Shown here: one piece after another, positions 1-17,727 of the stretch
Numbering within the stretch: the first letter of the stretch is position 1
Layout of the letters: each line of letters opens with the position of its first letter
Position numbers and translations under genes: made by a program
Origin: a virus
Taxonomy: Duplodnaviria > Heunggongvirae > Uroviricota > Caudoviricetes
IMG/VR virus record: IMGVR_UViG_2579778894_000023
Span: 1 to 21,416 of that record
Reading direction: 5' to 3' (one strand)
DNA: 21,416 nt
The notes under the pieces: model-generated
Told to the model about the DNA's origin: nothing
Database searches by the model: none
The model's input: only the letters and a program-made list of their open reading frames with translations

Positions 1-342
1 ATGATGAAAAAAAGTATTCTGGCGTTTCTGTTACTCACCAGTTCTGCAGCGGCGCTGGCTGCACCGCAGGTGATTACCGTCAGCCGTTTTGAAGTGGGTA
101 AAGACAAATGGGCGTTTAATCGCGAAGAGGTGATGCTGACTTGCCGACCGGGTAATGCTTTGTATGTCATCAACCCAAGTACCCTCGTGCAGTATCCTTT
201 AAACGATATCGCACAAAAGGAAGTTGCCAGTGGGAAGACTAAAGCCCAACCCATTTCGGTGATTCAGATTGATGATCCTAACAATCCCGGCGAAAAAATG
301 AGTCTGGCACCGTTTATAGAACGAGCTGAAAAACTCTGTTAA
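1..342 (+). CDS. yebY: Secreted DUF2511-family protein YebY (host gene flanking the prophage)
   Basis: Complete 113-aa ORF starting at window position 1; signal-peptide-like N-terminus ([20 protein letters not shown]); translation matches my recollection of E. coli YebY; followed by a hairpin with T-run. Confidence 0.7.
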
Positions 343-371
343 TTACCTAAAATAGCCTTTTGATTTCCAAT

Positions 372-413
372 AAAAAAACCGCCTCAGTTCTTTCACCAGA
401 ACGGGCGGTTTTT
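372..413. terminator. Bidirectional rho-independent terminator (ends yebY on +; candidate 3' end of RyeA on -)
   Basis: A-run 372-378, interrupted GC stem (accgcc 378-383 / ggcggt 404-409, inner gttct/agaac), T-run 409-413; reads as hairpin plus U-tract on both strands. Confidence 0.6.
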
Positions 414-463
414 AACATTTCAGCTGATGACCACCACGCTTTTTATTGACCATTTTGCACGCA

Positions 464-493
464 AACTGGAAAACCTGGCGTCGTCATCTATTC
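464..493 (+). promoter_or_regulatory. Candidate sigma-S-type promoter of sdsR
   Basis: ttgcac (464-469), 18-bp spacer, cTATTCT (487-493) with C just upstream of the -10, placed 7 nt before the sRNA 5' end at 501. SdsR is known to be RpoS-dependent. Confidence 0.4.
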
Positions 494-500
494 TTAAAGG

Positions 501-603
501 GCAAGGCAACTAAGCCTGCATTAATGCCAACTTTTAGCGCACGGCTCTCTCCCAAGAGCCATTTCCCTGGACCGAATACAGGAATCGTATTCGGTCTTTT
601 TTT
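501..603 (+). ncRNA. sdsR: SdsR (RyeB) small RNA
   Basis: 103-nt unit starting gcaaggcaacuaagccugcauuaaugcc and ending in a perfect terminator (ccgaauac-aggaauc-guauucgg, 571-593, plus U-run to 603). Length and sequence match my recollection of SdsR; no ORF with SD. Confidence 0.6.
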
Positions 604-734
604 AATTGTATTTAAAATCAATCAGTTGCAAACGTCTTCCCGAAATTCCCCGAAATTTACTCGAATTTCTGTATTCCGGTCTTTTTTGGTTATATCACAA
701 CCAAAATACATTTAACAATCCATTTACGTTAAAA
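604..734. other. Candidate attL region (host/prophage junction with Int arm-type repeats)
   Basis: Lies between the sRNA 3' end and the integrase stop. Three CGAAATT(T) copies at 641-647, 651-657, 662-668 (about 10-bp phasing) and a near-copy of the sdsR terminator tail (gtattccggtcttttttgg 671-689 vs gtattcggtcttttttt 587-603). Confidence 0.4.
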
Positions 735-1811
735 TCAGAGCAGTAAGTACGTTTTTTCTCTCTCATCAAGATACATTTTTGTTGTCTTCTCCGATGTGTG
801 GCCAAGTAGACGCTGAGCAAATTCTTCTCCACATGTTTCTTTGTACAATCGTCCAGCCAGACTTCTGATCTCGTGAAAAGTTGGTGGGTTTTCACTGAAC
901 TGGATACCTGTTAATTTTCTGGCTGCGACAAATTTTTTTGTCAGGCCATCCGGGTGAATGCTGCCGTCAGGGCTGTTTTTTCTAATCCCGGCACTGATTA
1001 GATAATCTCCCCGGCTTACCAGGCGGCACTGTTCAACTACTGTACCAAGCCGTAGACCAGCGACAGGAAGGCTGAGTGACAGGGGGATAGCAATCATCAT
1101 TCCTGTCTTAATTTGCCTGATGTGGAGACGATCATCATAAATATCACTAAACCGTATATTCGTTATGTCTTCGCGACGTTGTCCTGTTACAAGGGCTAAA
1201 TCCATAGCTAATGGGAACCATGCCGGAAGTTGATCTGCTGCCTCCCTGATGCAGTTGTATGTCTTTAGTTTCAGTCGTTCTCTTGTAACTACTATTTTCG
1301 GTGCTCTTGTTGGCGTTACTGGATTTTGAGATATACGTCCTTCAACAATGGCCTCACGAAACATATCAGACAACACAGAACGCATTGATCCTGCCATTGT
1401 GTTTTTCCCTCCTTCAATCCACAAATCAAGAAACTCGGCAATATGGCGAGTGGTTATTTCTGTCAGTAAAATTTCCCCCAATTTTTCTTTTATTGTCTCC
1501 AGTTGATTTACCCGAATTTTATAAGTATTTCTGGACACTTTTCTCCTTATAAGAATCGTTTTGTAACGTTCAATCCAGTCTGCCATAGTAAATGAGTCGA
1601 ACCCTTTAAGCTTTTCAATTAAGGCAGCAGGAGAGTAGTTTTTGTATATATAATGATTTGCTTCAATTGCCTGCGCTACTGCATCTCTTCTTGAAATTTT
1701 ACCTAGTGTAAATTCTTCTTTCGTCAGAGGGTTGCGCCAGTAATATGCTTTGTCCCTCCTTCGATATGTTAAGTTTTTAGGCAAATTGGGATCGTATTTT
1801 TTCCGCTGCAT
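735..1811 (-). CDS. int: Tyrosine recombinase, lambda-Int family integrase
   Basis: 358 aa; N-terminal arm-binding-like region and C-terminal catalytic motifs ([26 protein letters not shown]) align with lambda Int; SD GGAGA 9 nt upstream of ATG at 1811. Confidence 0.95.
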
Positions 1812-2064
1812 GTTTTAACTTCTCCAGTAACGGACTGTCTCTCCCTTGTCGCCCATTAGGCTGATGGTGTGTTATATCGGTATCAACCTTATTTGGGTTG
1901 ATATAGAAAGCCTCCGGAACCACCCTGTAACTCCTCCCGTGTAGTTCAGGTGCAGGATAAATGTTTCCATTCCTTGCCCATCGTCTCAGCGTTGATATTG
2001 ATGGTGGGTTATCCGGATATCTGAGTTTTCCCCACGTTTTGAGTGTCACAAGATTCATTGCCAT
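1777..2064 (-). CDS. xis: Excisionase (Xis-like)
   Basis: 95 aa; resembles lambda Xis pattern (L.TL..W...P....TLRRW.R...I.P); overlaps int start by 35 nt as is typical; SD AAGAGG upstream. Confidence 0.8.
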   Translation of the reverse strand: MAMNLVTLKTWGKLRYPDNPPSISTLRRWARNGNIYPAPELHGRSYRVVPEAFYINPNKVDTDITHHQPNGRQGRDSPLLEKLKHAAEKIRSQFA

Positions 2065-2168: not shown

Positions 2169-2357
2169 TCACGAGGACAGAAGTTTCTCGCAATTAAAAT
2201 TTATCAGCTTTACTTTCTGCTCTCTGGAAACGCCTGCTTCTTTTTTCCCTGAGAGCATTTTTTCGCATTCTGATTTCGTTAATTTAGATTTTGAATATCT
2301 TGTCCAGTTAGTAGGAGTGCCACCTTCCTTTTCAATAGTGGCAGTAATTTTATACAT
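2169..2357 (-). CDS. Small hypothetical protein (YdaC-like position in Rac-type prophages)
   Basis: Start chosen at internal ATG 2357 (MYKITATIEKEGG...) because of SD AATGGAGGTG 5 nt upstream and a 2-nt gap after the ralR stop; the longer ORF start at 2426 would overlap ralR. Confidence 0.55.
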   Translation of the reverse strand: MYKITATIEKEGGTPTNWTRYSKSKLTKSECEKMLSGKKEAGVSREQKVKLINFNCEKLLSS

Positions 2358-2544
2358 GAACACCTCCATTATTATTTCCAGTAGTTCGTTTATTCCATCT
2401 TTCGAGTGCTTCTTTTTCACTTCCACTATAGCCGGTTCGGGATTCGCATCCGTTACACTTTGCGCGGTAATATCCTGAAATGGCTTTCACCGTTACTGAT
2501 GGACAACCACAAAACGGACATGGTTTGACTTTTTCATACCGCAT
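2350..2544 (-). CDS. ralR: Restriction alleviation protein Lar/RalR
   Basis: 64 aa from ATG 2544 (MRYEKVKPCPFCGCPSVTVKAISGYYRAKCNGCESRTGY...), near-identical to recalled Rac RalR; Cys-rich zinc-ribbon-like motif. Confidence 0.85.
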   Translation of the reverse strand: MRYEKVKPCPFCGCPSVTVKAISGYYRAKCNGCESRTGYSGSEKEALERWNKRTTGNNNGGVHV

Positions 2545-2607
2545 TGTCTTTTCTCTCATAAAATAAAGTTTTGTTATGGCGGTGAGGCTACACCGCCATA
2601 GTAAATA

Positions 2608-3660
2608 TCAGGAGCCGATATATTCTGGTTTCATATCTGTCAGTGTCGTTTTATACGCCTCATATAATTCTCCCAGATGTGGTCGTGCAGCATTCAGCGT
2701 ATTTTCCAGAGCAATAAATTTTTGTTCTGCTTCTGGATCACCTGATGAAGGCAGGTCATTTATCATCGTCTCAATACGGGCAATAGCATTGAGACGGTGA
2801 TGACGCTGAACCACTTTTCCTTTAAGTTCTGTGTAGAGAGCGCCAAGTGTATTTTTATGATCTTCCACTTCCTGGCGAAGTGATGTTGTTTCTCCGGTGC
2901 TTTGTGCCTGCTCAATACGTTCACGGAAAGCACTGATCCAGTTTTCCCCGGCATCCTGCTCAATAATTGTTGTTTCACGTTCCGCACGGCAGGCGGATGT
3001 ATTTTTATGTTCCTGAACCGGATTAATGATTTTTTCCTGTGGTTCGTCCAGTTCGTCCCGGGTGTGCACTCCAAGAATCACTTCAGGGCAATAAAGGCGC
3101 GCCCAGCGTTTCAGTGCCAGATAGGCAAGCTGCTGGCGAGGATCATCGGCCCATAACGTTGAGTTACGTGTTCTGGCCTGTGCCAGAAGTAACTCCAGTA
3201 CGCGTGGCTTGCTCTCTCCGCGTAGTGTTGCCTGGACGCGAACTCCGATCCCGTTTTCATCGGCCAGCTTCCAGCTAGGTACACGATATTCTTTCCCCTT
3301 GTCGTTCTTCCTGATTTCAAATTTCCCGATAATTTTTTCCCACGGCCCGAACCAGTCATATTCAATACGCCCGGTTAGCGGCCCACGAGTACTGATTACG
3401 GCATTAACCAGTTGCGCTTCATATCCGAGCATACCATTCACAACGAAAGTTTTCTGAGCTACTGCGTAAGGGTTCATTTGCCACTGCATCGCCTGCATGG
3501 TGATGGCCATGCAGTCTGATGGATTTCCCCGGAGGTGTTCCGGTACAGTAGCCATGCCGGAAGCCATTACCTGGGAAAATGTCTGAATTGCAGCCAGGGA
3601 CTGAGGGCTGAAAACCGCAACATTAGAGTTAATATTTTCTTGTTGAGTTAATTCGTTCAT
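2608..3660 (-). CDS. Phage single-strand annealing protein, RecT-family-like recombinase
   Basis: 350 aa immediately downstream of the RecE-like exonuclease (stop/start 12 nt apart, SD GAGGAAGG). The segment LAYLALKRWARLYCPEV resembles the conserved RecT helix (AIRRLFKYLP). Family call rests on synteny plus this motif. Confidence 0.6.
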   Translation of the reverse strand: MNELTQQENINSNVAVFSPQSLAAIQTFSQVMASGMATVPEHLRGNPSDCMAITMQAMQWQMNPYAVAQKTFVVNGMLGYEAQLVNAVISTRGPLTGRIEYDWFGPWEKIIGKFEIRKNDKGKEYRVPSWKLADENGIGVRVQATLRGESKPRVLELLLAQARTRNSTLWADDPRQQLAYLALKRWARLYCPEVILGVHTRDELDEPQEKIINPVQEHKNTSACRAERETTIIEQDAGENWISAFRERIEQAQSTGETTSLRQEVEDHKNTLGALYTELKGKVVQRHHRLNAIARIETMINDLPSSGDPEAEQKFIALENTLNAARPHLGELYEAYKTTLTDMKPEYIGS

Positions 3661-3671
3661 TGTGTCCTTCC

Positions 3672-6600
3672 TCAGATGCTCAGTGCTTCAAGACGACGAA
3701 GATCAAAGTCGTTTAATTCGTCGGTATAACTTTCGGTAATCGGTGCTGGCCAGTTGTTTGTCTCCAGAGCTTCGTTTATCTGTCGTAGTGTCCGGCGATA
3801 TTCCTGTCGACCAAGTTCCAGGAGTTCCTGCGAGGCTTCCACGACGGCCACCCAGTGATAGCCAGCATCTTTGTTGACGAAGATCCAGAAAAATTTGTCC
3901 AGGTTTGCCACATCGCAATACATTGCTGCGCTGAGGTGATAATCACGTTCAATAATTTCACGGTGCAGGCGATCTTTCAGTCGTTCCTGTCGCACATAAC
4001 CGAGGCTGACTGACTTCACGTCGGCGCAAATGCTTTCGTATGGCAGCCGGATTTCGATATCAGGACGGACCCTGATTTCCAGCCCGGTTTCTTCATCAAA
4101 CCCGAAATAGCTGATTTCAGATTTGCGATCCGGGTGGTTGAGTAGCCTTGCTGCATCAGTATTGTTTTGCAGTGCTGCGTGAATATTTTTTGCCTGTTCA
4201 TACATATCCGGACTGATAAACGTTTTCCCGGCGTTTTCTTCTTGCTGGCGTTTTTGCCAGTCCTCCAGTGTTACCAGTTCCGGGCGAATTTTCCGGGCGA
4301 TTTCGGTTAATTGCTCTTTTGTGCCACTGATGTTGTAAGGCAAAGATTTAGCACGTTCTTTTTTTGCCAGTTCTGGATCTACAGTTTCAATTTGCTCCAG
4401 GAGCTGCTCTCGTGTTCCACTGGCTTTCAGCAGAGGAGGGAGGCTTGCGTTGTATTCTTTAATACAGGCTTTCATTGCTGATGCTGTGTGTTTTTCCCCC
4501 TCAGGAATACGCCGGAATTCCTCCGGAAGCGAACCGTAAAGGATGCCTGTTTCTTCGGCCCCGGCACTTACCGACAGTGGCTGTATAAGAGTGCTGTTGT
4601 AGCTTTCGATCCACTCTTTCATCTGCTCTGGTGTCATCAGTGCTGGCAGACTGGCATTGTGTTTTTTAATGATGGCGATCAGTTCGTTAGAAGTAGTAAC
4701 CACATATTCAGGAACCGGTACCGGGATGGCATACTCATCAGCGAATTTATCCGTTTCCAGAACATAGCTGTGAATAATCCGCCCACGCAGCAATGCATCA
4801 CTTTCCTCGCCCGGAATAGTTCCGGCAATGTGCCGTCCGTGGTAATACATCAGGCTGATGCGGGCATCCTTCAGCATTGTGCTGCTTATTCCGTTGGCGG
4901 AGTGATAAACCTCGTTCGGGAGGTTTTCATAGCGGCCAGGCTCGAAATATGACGGCCACATGATTTCAGTTACTACAGGTGCTGTCGTTTCACCAGCTTC
5001 ATCACTGCAATCGCAATGCGGATTGCTGCCAGCGTTCTCCTTGTGCGGATGTTCAGCACCTTCCATTTCCTCCAGACCTTTTTCCTGATATTCATTCTGA
5101 TTTTCTTCATTAAAGGTTTTCTGATACGTTGCGTCGCCCATCACCGCGCCACAGTCAGGACAGTTGCCGCCGCCAGCCTTACCGCAGGCGGTGCAAACTT
5201 TCTCCGTTTCCTGTTGTTGCACTACTGGCTCAGGCTGTTTCGTTTCTGGCTCGTTTTGTTGCGTATTTGGGTCGTTCTGTTCCGTTTCTGGCTGATTCTG
5301 GTACACAGAATCGCGGGTCTGGATCCCCTTAACCCATTTCGGATCATTCGGGTCGCTAATCCCTTCAACAAATTCTCCGCGAGAGGCAGCCAGTAATTTG
5401 TCTGCATCGACAGGATTTTTGGGCGGAATGTTTTTCCGGGCTTCATAGAGTTCTGCCCGCAGTTTCTGATATTTCGCATCAACAGAATTTACCTGTGACT
5501 GAGCATCCAGCGGCTGCGTGTCCTGATGATGTTCAGTTGCATCCGGTTCCACTGTTTCAGCCGTTGCCTGTTCATCTGCCATTGCGCAAGATGGTTGCAG
5601 TTTTTCTTCATCATCCTGTTTTTCTTCTTCTGTTACACGCTGCGGCATCGGGGCAGAGGAACGACCGCAGGCAATATCCACGATTTCTTGATCAGGGGTG
5701 GCATGATCAGTTTCAGTCAGTACTTTGTTAAGATATTCAGTGACGTGTGCGGGGATAACCTCGATCCCAATTGGTGCTTCTTTTACGGACGCAACCACGA
5801 TGGCGCGGGAATAATCCAGCCCGCCAGGCATGGTGATGAATTTGTCGCGGAAAACAGAAAAGGGCGGTTTATTTTCAGCGATAATTTCCTCGACACGTTT
5901 AGCGTGTGCCGGATGAAGGTTATAAATGTCCACGTCCATTGAACGAGCCAGTACGCCAGTGGCTACGTCGCGCGCCAGTGACGTCAGATCGTGAACGAAA
6001 CCTTCGCCGCGATCGGTGAGGTTCCCGCCGCCAGCATTAGCGCCGGAAGCCGTGCGCGTGATGCGTGAAACACGATTTCCTTTCATCCACTCTTTTGTCA
6101 GCAGACCGCGATCGGTGTAGTCTGCGTCCAGGTATGCTTCGAAAAAAGCAGTCATCAGCCCCAGGCTTGAATTGCCTGGATTAGGGAAAACTCTGTCAGT
6201 ATCACGCACCAGTTTGTGGAGATCGCGAATTTCCAACGGGTCGAGCAGGCTGGTTTTGTGGGAAACAGCCAGGGCAGTAACAGCTGGTAGTTCTTCAGCT
6301 CGTGCAATGTGTAATGCCTGTAGTCCGTCGCGTGAAACGTGCGTTACCGGTTTTTCGCTGCCGTGTTGAGCAAGCCAGCGAATGGGCAGCTCCTGACCGG
6401 AAATCGGGAGTAGCATATTCTCCTCAATCTCCGTCATGTCTTCGCCATTAACATTGGTATTGTCAGTGCTGGCTGGTTTGTCCTGCGCAGAGGATGAGGG
6501 CGCGATAAATACCATTGTGATGCCATCTTCCCCGCCTTTTTCGTAACGGTTGCAGAATTCCGTATCAAATACGCCTTCTGGTGGAAGGTCATCAACAACG

Positions 6601-6800
6601 GGCAAGTTGACGCGAACAGGTTTTTTAAAGTCATCTTCATCGTAGCCAGCATCGTCAATCGCAACAGCACCACGGGAGATGGCAATGGATAATTTTTTCG
6701 CTTCAGCCCAGTAGAAACCGCCTTTAATACCGAGACGTTTTCTTACTTTGTCATTTTTTGCTTCGTAATACAGTGGGTAAACTTGTTTATCGGTGCTCAT
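3672..6800 (-). CDS. recE: Exodeoxyribonuclease VIII (RecE-like), 1042 aa, with an extra repeat-containing insertion in the nuclease domain
   Basis: The N-terminal two thirds align with recalled E. coli RecE ([24 protein letters not shown]..., [16 protein letters not shown] zinc ribbon). The C-terminal PD-(D/E)xK region (IRVRPD...DVK) is diverged and carries a ~150-aa insertion. Confidence 0.9.
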
Positions 6801-7640: not shown

Positions 7641-8048
7641 AATTATCTCCATTTTTACAAATGAATTTTGTCGATGCGGTGCCTGGTGCCTCCAGGTGAC
7701 GTTAACCAGTTAACAATTAACGCCGGATAATCCACCCATAACACTGATGCTTTTAACTGTGCCGCGTGCGCTTAGCCGCATTCACCGCATCACAAAATTC
7801 ACTTTAAAAAGGGGCGGCAGGGCAGCCACGGAGTAGAACTGATGCCGCCAAAGACTACACATAGCAATGTCGTTATTTACAACCGGAGGCGCACTCCCAC
7901 CATTTAAATTTAACAGACAAGACCGACTCTTTATGGATACCGGAAATGCGCCTTCGTGTTGTGCCCGGTTTTATTTCACCACCTCCGGGCTTTGGTGGCC
8001 TCGGCTATACCCCTACAGCAAGAATATTGAATTAATCCAATAAATGGT

Positions 8049-14961: not shown

Positions 14962-15184
14962 GAAGGAAACAAAACAGAAACAACAATTGCCGTTATCTGT
15001 TGTTACCATGGCAAGTAAACGTATCTCAGGCGAGCGCATTGCGCCGTTCTGACGCAGATAAATTAGCCTGGATAGATGGTGCTGGCAATAAAAAATAGCG
15101 TTTTCTTATCGGTGTCGGTAAGATTGCTGCGGGTGCTTGAGGCTGTCTGCCTCGGGCATGCCACTGTAAGGCAGACAGAGAAAA

Positions 15185-15285
15185 GCCCCAGTTAACATTA
15201 CGCGTCCTGCAAGACGCTTAACATTAATCTGAGGCCATATCTATGCGACACATAGAGATTAGCCTCTTACGGACCGAAAGGTCAA
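15185..15285 (-). ncRNA. Candidate sok-like antisense RNA and its promoter (approximate)
   Basis: Minus strand reads TTGACC (15285-15280), 18-bp spacer, TAATCT (15261-15256); predicted start ~15249 would make an RNA complementary to the mok-like start region. 3' end not defined. Confidence 0.25.
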
Positions 15286-15302
15286 GGAGAAGCAGGCTAT
15301 GA
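15243..15302 (+). CDS. Candidate mok-like leader ORF (19 codons) coupled to hok
   Basis: ATG 15243 lies inside the hairpin ctatg-cgaca-catag; ORF MRHIEISLLRTERSRRSRL ends in TGA overlapping the hok ATG (cTATGAag). Confidence 0.3.
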   Translation: MRHIEISLLRTERSRRSRL

Positions 15303-17454: not shown

Positions 17455-17479
17455 CTCAATCTGTTATCCGGGGCTATAT
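17450..17479 (+). promoter_or_regulatory. Late promoter PR'-like
   Basis: TTGACT (17450-55), 18-bp spacer, TATATT (17474-79), overlapping the end of the Q gene. Confidence 0.55.
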
Positions 17480-17540
17480 TCCTCACGCGCCAGCAAAATC
17501 TGGCGTCGGGATTAGGAACCCCGGATAGAGACCGCGACAG

Positions 17541-17566
17541 ACACACGCCGCGAGCGTGTTTTTTAT
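17541..17566 (+). terminator. tR'-like terminator of the short late leader RNA
   Basis: acacgc-cgcga-gcgtgt followed by tttttt, ~80 nt after the predicted PR' start. Confidence 0.65.
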
Positions 17567-17727
17567 TGTCGTATGCACGCGCACATCTGAATTATGGTGG
17601 GGCGTATGGGGGAGCTGAAAAGCTCGCCGGTTGGTTTCCCGGTAGTTCCTAACCCTGTACGTCTCACCACCCGATGATTAGGAACCTGACGGTGGTGATG
17701 GTTTAGAAACCACCAGAGGGCGTCATT

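Follow-up and report, generated by a model that had tools for sequence, protein, structure and literature searches.

A Rac-like lambdoid prophage very probably joins the chromosome of E. coli at the end of a small RNA gene. Positions 573-734 carry what appears to be its left attachment site, attL (B-O-P'), with strand exchange within ACAGGAATCGT (578-588). On this model, a lambda-family integrase would use the terminator of sdsR (also called ryeB) as its chromosomal attachment site. The attL at sdsR is a well-built but ordinary attachment site. The DNA analyzed, referred to below as the window, is a stretch of 21,416 nt from the IMG/VR record IMGVR_UViG_2579778894_000023, and the right end of the prophage lies beyond it.

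The host locus

SdsR is a conserved stationary-phase regulator whose reported targets include ompD, tolC, and mutS. In E. coli, the antisense RNA RyeA (also called SraC) counteracts SdsR, and the neighboring gene pphA is fed by read-through from sdsR (Choi et al., PMC6610125). The host portion of the locus contains the following features:

1-342 (+): yebY, the host gene to the left of sdsR (ORF of 113 aa; annotated as YebY in matching E. coli genomes).
374-413: a perfect inverted repeat of 10 bp, with an A-run and a T-run on its flanks (inverted-repeat search).
463-607 (-): the SraC/RyeA body, antisense to SdsR (Rfam RF00101), which here is without its native 5' end and promoter.
501-604 (+): the SdsR/RyeB sRNA gene (Rfam RF00111), with 501-588 being host DNA and 589-604 supplied by the phage.
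569-597 (+): the SdsR terminator hairpin (terminator scan and fold), whose arms are the core inverted repeat CCGAATAC / GTATTCGG.

A sequence-only reading of this DNA had placed a prophage at the bidirectional sdsR/ryeB-ryeA locus, and that placement is borne out: both RNAs are matched in Rfam, and phage DNA is present from the 3' end on. The SdsR_RyeB family (RF00111) matches over its full length at 504-603 (+) with 118.1 bits against a gathering score of 38, which disposes of the possibility that 501-603 is not SdsR at all. The SraC_RyeA family (RF00101) also matches over its full length, at 607-463 (-), with 179.1 bits against a threshold of 37. The K-12 annotation gives sdsR a length of 104 nt, and positions 440-588 of the window are identical to E. 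coli K-12. Farther to the left, we infer that the inverted repeat at 374-413 is probably a two-way terminator for yebY and RyeA; RyeA is included because the 3' ends of K-12 RyeA, which are 261-270 nt from its start (PMC6610125), fall there.

The junction and the crossover

The junction was located by a four-way alignment in which the window represented attL, MG1655 and a K-12-like strain represented attB, and related records represented attR and attP. The attR was taken from strain CFS3292, in which the junction is 99.8% identical and a prophage of about 44 kb ends between pinE and pphA, and the attP came from a phage record with a 96.6% identical int. The alignment defines two nested features:

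573-604: a longer, imperfect match of phage and host around the core, CGAA.ACAGGAATCGT.TTCGGTCT.TTTTTA.
578-588: the strand-exchange segment ACAGGAATCGT, 11 bp, the sole stretch identical in attB, attP, attL, and attR.

The segment is bounded at position 577, where the host has T and the phage A, and at position 589, where the host has G and the phage A; at 598, the host allele is C and the phage allele T. In attL, the host alleles are on the left and the phage alleles on the right, and in attR the order is reversed. Among loci fetched later, this pattern is kept in 52 of 54 E. coli-type attL and in 36 of 37 attR, and a few sites (L059, L087, and L165) carry the opposite allele at 577 or 589. 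The earlier suggestion that the junction lies at 604 is correct in part. The BLAST-level break against prophage-free genomes is indeed at 604, but the four-way alignment, which includes prophage-free K-12, places the core and the actual exchange further left, at 578-588. The matching core expected at the other end of the prophage is present at attR, about 43 kb away in the related genome (CFS3292).

Within the segment, the 7-bp overlap is likely to be AGGAATC at 580-586, an assignment made by analogy with lambda. AGGAATC is the 7-nt loop between the inverted arms GAATAC and GTATTC in both attB and attL, and the 11-bp identity is centered on this loop, the cleavage positions being presumed. The stem arms of the SdsR terminator would supply the inverted repeat that is typical of core-type integrase sites. 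In attP, the stem of the core hairpin is not restored by the left arm of the phage (-4.2 kcal/mol, z = +0.4).

By the same alignment, the exchange falls in the loop of the SdsR terminator, and the last 16 nt of SdsR, comprising the 3' stem arm and the U-tail, are phage-derived. The phage copy of the right half of the terminator rebuilds SdsR with two substitutions relative to K-12: G589A, which turns a U.G pair into a U-A pair in the terminator, and C598U, which lengthens the U-tail from 5 to 7. The terminator hairpin folds with -15.8 kcal/mol, a value equal in the lysogen and K-12.

The distribution of the element was surveyed with megablast in 5,426 complete E. coli genomes, and intact sites were counted with a K-12-type attB probe that runs from sdsR through the pphA spacer. 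Every genome matches window positions 343-604, and 228 of the 5,426 continue into 605-760. The element is present in these proportions (228/5,426) always at sdsR, and its hosts include strains of O55:H7, O111:H8, O103:H2, and O121; attB is uninterrupted in 5,191 of the 5,426. Two cases of a split site without an intact copy of the junction were examined as possible insertions of other phages in E. coli, and both turned out to be insertion sequences (IS1 in the P' arm in one and ISApl1 beside sdsR in the other). An integrase scan of viral contigs returned 80 loci, some of which are 69-74% identical and lie in different host flanks. A scan of a genome collection gave only three loci, including Entomohabitans (70%) and Shigella flexneri (94%), so the taxonomic spread rests on the viral contigs. 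All of the diverged integrase loci sit at the 3' end of sdsR.

These comparisons also bear on whether 604-734 could be host DNA, with the true junction elsewhere, which is now so improbable that it can practically be dismissed. Matches stop at window position 604 or earlier in all 5,198 genomes without this int. In the 5,191 genomes whose attB is intact, sdsR runs straight into the pphA spacer, and none of them has 604-734 contiguous with host DNA. The stretch is found in the phage attP, and it is contiguous with phage P-arm DNA in the phage record and in attP-like loci in the middle of contigs. Nor is the K-12 spacer detectably homologous to the P' arm; a hint of homology between the two in a MAFFT alignment was set aside, as the local alignment scores are within the shuffle range for 8 of 8 arms.

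The integrase and its probable arm-type sites

Two recombination genes lie beyond the junction:

735-1811 (-): integrase, a lambda-family tyrosine recombinase (ORF of 358 aa; Pfam PF09003, PF22022, and PF00589).
1777-2064 (-): excisionase (Pfam PF07825, E = 6.5e-14; same annotation in matching genomes).

The integrase has an arm-DNA-binding domain (PF09003, 28.1 bits with a cut-off of 22), a central domain (PF22022, 41.2 bits), and a catalytic domain (PF00589, 60.7 bits). Aligned across 97% of its length, it shares 41% identity with the Int of HK022 and about 39% with that of HK97. Since it carries the lambda Arm-DNA-binding domain, arm-type sites are expected. The gene had been estimated to end about 130 bp from the 3' end of SdsR, and by measurement its stop codon is 131 nt beyond that end. 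The P' arm is 131 bp long and contains the following:

616-628 (+): an IHF-consensus site, AATCAATCAGTTG, placed as H' is in lambda, with the core on one side and the repeats on the other.
639-668 (+): three tandem candidate arm-type sites, P'1, P'2, and P'3, with cores CGAAATT at 641-647, CGAAATTT at 651-658, and CGAATTT at 662-668.

The consensus WATCAANNNNTTR has a single match in the whole 21.4-kb window, the one at 616-628, and the predicted IHF site is kept in most of the diverged lineages. The three copies of CGAAATT(T) that had been described at helical-turn spacing at 641-668 were all found, and they are phased, with start-to-start spacings of 10 and 11 bp. A search for the phased three-copy pattern gave one occurrence in the window, and none of 100 shuffles contained it. 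Taken singly, the 8-mer YCGAAWWT shows no enrichment across the window (12 occurrences compared to 10.2 expected), so the nonrandom signal is the phased cluster and not the word.

Conservation was examined in an alignment of nine lineages, in which Int is 69-100% identical, and the variability of each block was expressed as the mean minor-allele frequency:

Three repeat cores: 0 to 0.05.
Core: 0.012.
3' end of the int coding sequence: 0.23.
10 bp preceding the repeats: 0.47.
Triplets that separate the repeats: about 0.5.

The variable triplets are informative in themselves. The triplets before the three repeats change together in each lineage (as CCC/ACT, CCT, GTC, or ATC/TTC), and the triplet types correspond to versions of a short variable segment in the Int N-domain (around residues 17-24). 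This covariation has one exception, L075, which combines CCT-type repeats with an N-domain otherwise paired with ATC/TTC repeats. The P arm was sampled as 54 distinct P-arm sequences joined to the core, which were found by means of a conserved P-arm word. In each of three lineages, the P arm contains a pair of copies of the repeat motif, spaced 11 bp apart at about -159 to -141 relative to the core center, and the pair is followed by the conserved TAACTAATTGAAT. The repeat number is three in 74 of 75 int-linked arms adjoining sdsR, although these samples are not independent of each other. Two or five repeats are seen only in the inner elements of tandem arrays, and int is degraded in 7 of the 10 for which its state is known.

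Xis, Fis, or a phage regulator might bind tandem repeats of this kind, or the repeats could simply be prone to slippage. The copy number of 2 to 5 in some elements is in keeping with such a reading, and lambda Xis, too, binds tandem direct repeats. However, the repeats occupy the position of lambda P'1-P'3, their motif recurs in the P arm, and the bases flanking them covary with the Int N-domain, all of which speaks against sites for another protein. In lambda, moreover, the Xis and Fis sites belong to the P arm rather than to the interval from core to int. In the present element, three copies are kept wherever int is intact and adjoins sdsR. On balance, sites for another protein or a slippage product are unlikely. 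The earlier proposal that the repeats are Int arm-type sites is supported by all of the comparative tests run, and the repeats at 641-668 are probably the arm-type sites of this integrase.

The P' arm of lambda consists of the core, an IHF site, and three tandem sites, with int reading toward them. The P' arm of the window would be lambda-like, with the IHF site at +33 to +45 from the core center and three arm-type sites at +58 to +85. Int would bind the arm repeats through its N-terminal domain and act at the core through its C-terminal domains. The P arm would add two copies of the motif at about -159 to -141, as well as an IHF-like site. The repeat motif CCGAAAT resembles the core half-site CCGAATA and may also be bound by the core-binding domain.

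A second copy of the SdsR tail

Between the arm repeats and int, the P' arm contains an additional element:

671-687 (+): a second copy of the right half of the core and its T-run, GTATTCCGGTCTTTTTT (repeat search), a conserved P'-arm element.

Comparison of GTATTCGGTCTTTTTTT (587-603) with GTATTCCGGTCTTTTTT (671-687) gives a 17-nt near-copy with one extra C. Searched with one position left free, this pattern has a single occurrence in the window compared to 0.02 expected. The near-duplicate reported between 587-603 and 671-689 is thus real, including its extra C, but it ends at 687, as the last two G residues do not match. Its interpretation as a duplication made at the junction has to be abandoned. 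The near-copy is not an integration product, since it is found in attP and in all of the diverged lineages, and the true second core is at attR.

The near-copy varies among lineages. The extra C is absent from some, and one has a TCTC form of the tail. With a minor-allele frequency of 0.157, it is more variable than the functional motifs and less so than the spacers. The third repeat and the near-copy together read CCGAAT-TTCT-GTATTCGGTCTTTTT, which resembles the complete SdsR terminator apart from its shorter loop. In contig L028, the two copies are joined, and 84 bp with the IHF site and all three repeats have been lost; the near-copy can therefore recombine with the core. The near-copy may be a core-type Int half-site, a part of the start region of a promoter, or a fossil maintained by gene conversion.

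The likeness of CCGAAT...ATTCGG and the T-run to the SdsR terminator suggests that the near-copy and the third repeat could form a back-up intrinsic terminator on the + strand, which would halt SdsR read-through, or late transcription in the attP state, before it enters int in the antisense direction. Read-through from SdsR is substantial in K-12 (PMC6610125), and the hairpin of the L070 type folds at -7.4 kcal/mol (z = -4.3). However, the hairpin in the window has only -2.5 kcal/mol (z = +0.1), and those of three other lineages reach -2.5 to -4.2 kcal/mol, so that the structure is weak in 4 of 5 lineages. The terminator scan reported nothing at 659-689, and the extra C, which breaks the stem, comes and goes with no compensating change in the 5' arm. 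The near-copy was rejected as a terminator on these grounds, and a back-up terminator is improbable.

A better case, though still a doubtful one, can be made for a functionless fossil of a core duplication or nested integration, in which gene conversion between repeats 84 bp apart keeps the two alike. The near-copy varies more (0.157) than the core (0.012) or the arm sites (0-0.05), and its variants mirror those of the core (presence or absence of the extra C and TCTC for TCTT). The copies do recombine, as the contig without the intervening 84 bp demonstrates, and tandem arrays of P arm, core, and P' arm are common in Salmonella-like contigs. Yet the near-copy is in the same position in every lineage, including those in which Int is 69-70% identical and the one from another genus (Entomohabitans), and the surrounding nonmotif sequence has diverged far more across the same span.

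The promoter and 5' end of RyeA

The consequences of integration for RyeA follow from where its transcription begins. The start of RyeA in K-12 is 38 nt beyond the 3' end of SdsR, and its promoter is just beyond that start (Choi et al., PMC6610125). Because both the start and the promoter lie to the right of the crossover, the host RyeA promoter goes to attR. By this comparison with K-12, the native promoter and the first 38 nt of RyeA have moved about 43 kb, to attR beside pphA, and a RyeA transcript from attL has to begin within phage sequence. In the related lysogen, the native RyeA promoter at attR points into the P arm of the phage, and pphA is about 43 kb from sdsR. One candidate for a replacement was found in the phage DNA:

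689-718 (-): candidate phage-borne promoter toward sdsR (conserved blocks and spacing).

The candidate has a -35 element, TTGTTA, at 718-713, a spacer of 18 nt, and an extended -10 element, TGaTATAAC, at 697-689, with a predicted start at about 682. It coincides with two blocks that are invariant at attL, TTATAyCACA (690-699) and TTTAACAwT (711-719), whose minor-allele frequencies are 0.03 and 0.007, respectively, compared to 0.23 for the spacer between them. The 18-nt spacing, within the 16-18 bp range of sigma-70 promoters, is kept in the three lineages that were checked by hand (the window, L066, and L088). The proposed -10 element (TATAAC or TATAAG) is without the conserved final T in all lineages, and it was absent from the consensus scan. 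Whether the conserved blocks are a phage-borne RyeA promoter firing toward sdsR is, on present evidence, evenly balanced. With such a promoter, lysogens would make a RyeA-like antisense RNA that extends about 40 nt further at the 5' end than the RyeA of K-12, and the near-copy would lie around the predicted start of this longer RNA.

There is published support of an indirect kind. On blots, Frohlich et al. (PMC3333887) found that the SraC of Salmonella and Shigella exceeds that of E. coli by about 35 nt, and they placed a potential -10 box about 35 bp further upstream in Salmonella and Shigella. A Shigella flexneri genome has the same P' arm at sdsR. The fit between the predicted position of the phage promoter and the longer SraC is good but indirect.

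Other elements in this part of the P' arm were also considered. A promoter match on the minus strand at 632-605 (TTTGCA-16-TACAAT) is not favored, as its hexamers are not conserved in the diverged lineages, though it could work in the lineage of the window. A hairpin at 684-706 and a longer pairing at 670-710 were rejected, since the complementary bases are not kept in other lineages.

In E. coli, RyeA serves as the antidote to toxic SdsR. A more ambitious proposal, to be held only tentatively, is that the phage repairs both sRNAs, providing SdsR with a new 3' end and RyeA with a new start. The RyeA promoter of Salmonella and Shigella would then be phage-derived, and the near-copy would be a part of this device or a core-type site that couples Int occupancy to RyeA output.

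Comparison with known systems

The attachment site resembles those of lambda and HK022 in many respects. The Int has the same length and three domains, with 39-41% identity, and the Xis belongs to the lambda Exc family. The arrangement of the arms is shared as well: int borders the P' arm and reads in its direction, an IHF-type site separates the core from three tandem P' sites (about +58 to +85), and the P arm has sites at about -160 to -140. It differs from lambda in its core and arm sequences and in its target, which is an sRNA terminator and not the gal-bio spacer. Also, all of the arm repeats in the window element share one orientation, and an extra stretch of about 65 bp from P'3 to int contains the core-like copy and two conserved blocks, which have no counterpart in lambda.

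Integration at the 3' ends of tRNA and tmRNA genes (thrW, leuX, and ssrA) offers another parallel, in that the symmetric stem of a small structured RNA gene is targeted and the gene is left intact by a replacement 3' end. The difference here is that the target is a bidirectional pair of sRNAs. Repair of the SdsR strand cuts off the promoter of RyeA, and pphA is separated from sdsR read-through.

The closest precedent is in Salmonella, in which the ryeA/ryeB locus is a phage hot spot (Balbontin et al., J Bacteriol 2008, as summarized in PMC7380047; PMC3333887 and PMC3603311 also refer to it). According to PMC7380047, the insertion point of PhiW104 lies in the last 23 bp of ryeB, and the phage alters the 5' part of ryeA; the same review states that lysogeny lowers ryeA and raises ryeB. 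The PhiW104 site is in the same part of the gene, with att within the last ~23 bp of ryeB and internal to ryeA, and with the 5' part of ryeA replaced. The exchange in the window is 16-26 nt from the 3' end of SdsR. Integrases in Salmonella-like flanks are 69-74% identical to the Int of the window, and the whole layout of the P' arm is common to them. Compared to PhiW104, the window belongs to the lineage of E. coli and Shigella, its early region is Rac-like, and its repeat flanks are of another type.

Implications

The hot spot and its effect on both sRNAs have been known since 2008, and no new principle is added here. What may go beyond published knowledge is the conserved core-like copy, the covariation of the repeat flanks with the Int N-domain, and the likely phage origin of the RyeA promoter in lysogens, all of them details of a system already described. 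The site also offers a clean, naturally occurring data set on how the arm-binding domain of an integrase and its arm-type sites change together.

About 4% of complete E. coli genomes carry the prophage, and many of these are large genomes of the Shiga-toxin type (O111, O103, O121, and O55:H7). The presence of a prophage at sdsR means that the SdsR tail is chimeric, the native RyeA promoter is displaced, and pphA is cut off from sdsR. Caution is therefore called for when SdsR and RyeA results from K-12 are applied to such strains, in which lysogeny could shift the regulation of stress responses, porins, and the mutation rate relative to nonlysogens.

Tandem arrays and disruptions of the sdsR locus

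The P' arm is not uniform in its number of arm-type repeats, the putative integrase-binding sites. Where a P' arm sits behind the P arm of another phage, in Salmonella-like tandem arrays, the count ranges from 2 to 5, with two repeats in L096, L107, L147, L158, and L159 and five in L150. In most of these two- or five-repeat P' arms, the int gene is degraded. Many contigs carry an uninterrupted P arm–core–P' arm, as expected if insertions into one core are repeated.

In the viral contig L028 (IMGVR_UViG_2728369554_000022), a natural 84-bp deletion falls in the region equivalent to window 587-689, so that the GTATTC(C)GGTCTTTTTT in the core is fused to its second copy. The deletion takes out the integration host factor (IHF) site together with every one of the three arm repeats; int stays intact, and a prophage deleted in this way probably could not excise. 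In another contig, L082 (IMGVR_UViG_2574180332_000004), the P' arm ends abruptly at GGTCTTTTTGG and is joined to DNA resembling a leucine-rich-repeat effector gene. Within the joint, a segment is duplicated and one base is an N. This structure may have arisen in assembly, or it may represent a second junction, located at the second copy.

The sdsR locus is also broken up by insertion sequence (IS) elements. In an E. coli O121 genome (L177, NZ_CP119441.1), IS1 is inserted between sdsR and int, and in L178 (NZ_CP051158.1), ISApl1 lies directly downstream of sdsR at an otherwise empty site.

The phage record used for attP (L004, PP818812.1) is named "Actinobacillus phage vB_Apl-pPE4," with Actinobacillus pleuropneumoniae as its stated host. 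Its attP has the 3' end of enterobacterial sdsR as its core, and its int shares 96.6% DNA identity with that of the E. coli prophage in the window. The Actinobacillus label looks doubtful.

Early region and small RNAs of the prophage

The prophage has a Rac-like early region, made up of RalA/ralR, recT/recE-type genes, and kil, and carries further small RNAs matched in Rfam.

Features in the window
2173-2351 (+) and 2350-2559 (-): RalA antitoxin RNA (223.8 bits) overlapping the ralR toxin gene
2608-6800: recT/recE-type genes; these and kil come after RalA/ralR
7812-7863 (-): DicF, a phage-borne small RNA (Rfam)
15131-15301 (+): sok small RNA, with hokD (Rfam)
17474-17674 (+): isrK/C4 antisense RNA pair and its a1b1 target (Rfam), adjoining an ORF6N/antirepressor-type gene

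Consequences for RyeA and SdsR

The native RyeA promoter is displaced to attR, as seen in strain CFS3292 (L003 43890-43960). It should still be active, reading into the core and on into the P arm of the phage, and its transcript should run antisense to the pinE end. The predicted RNA would be an orphan, complementary to the SdsR tail over only ~27 nt.

SdsR itself is changed in the lysogen. At window 589, in the terminator stem, the G of K-12 SdsR is an A, turning a U.G pair into U-A. At 598, in the tail, the K-12 C is a U, giving a U-run of 7 versus 5; some attL variants (L023, L024, L057, and L061) keep the C. These changes could alter termination efficiency and Hfq binding.
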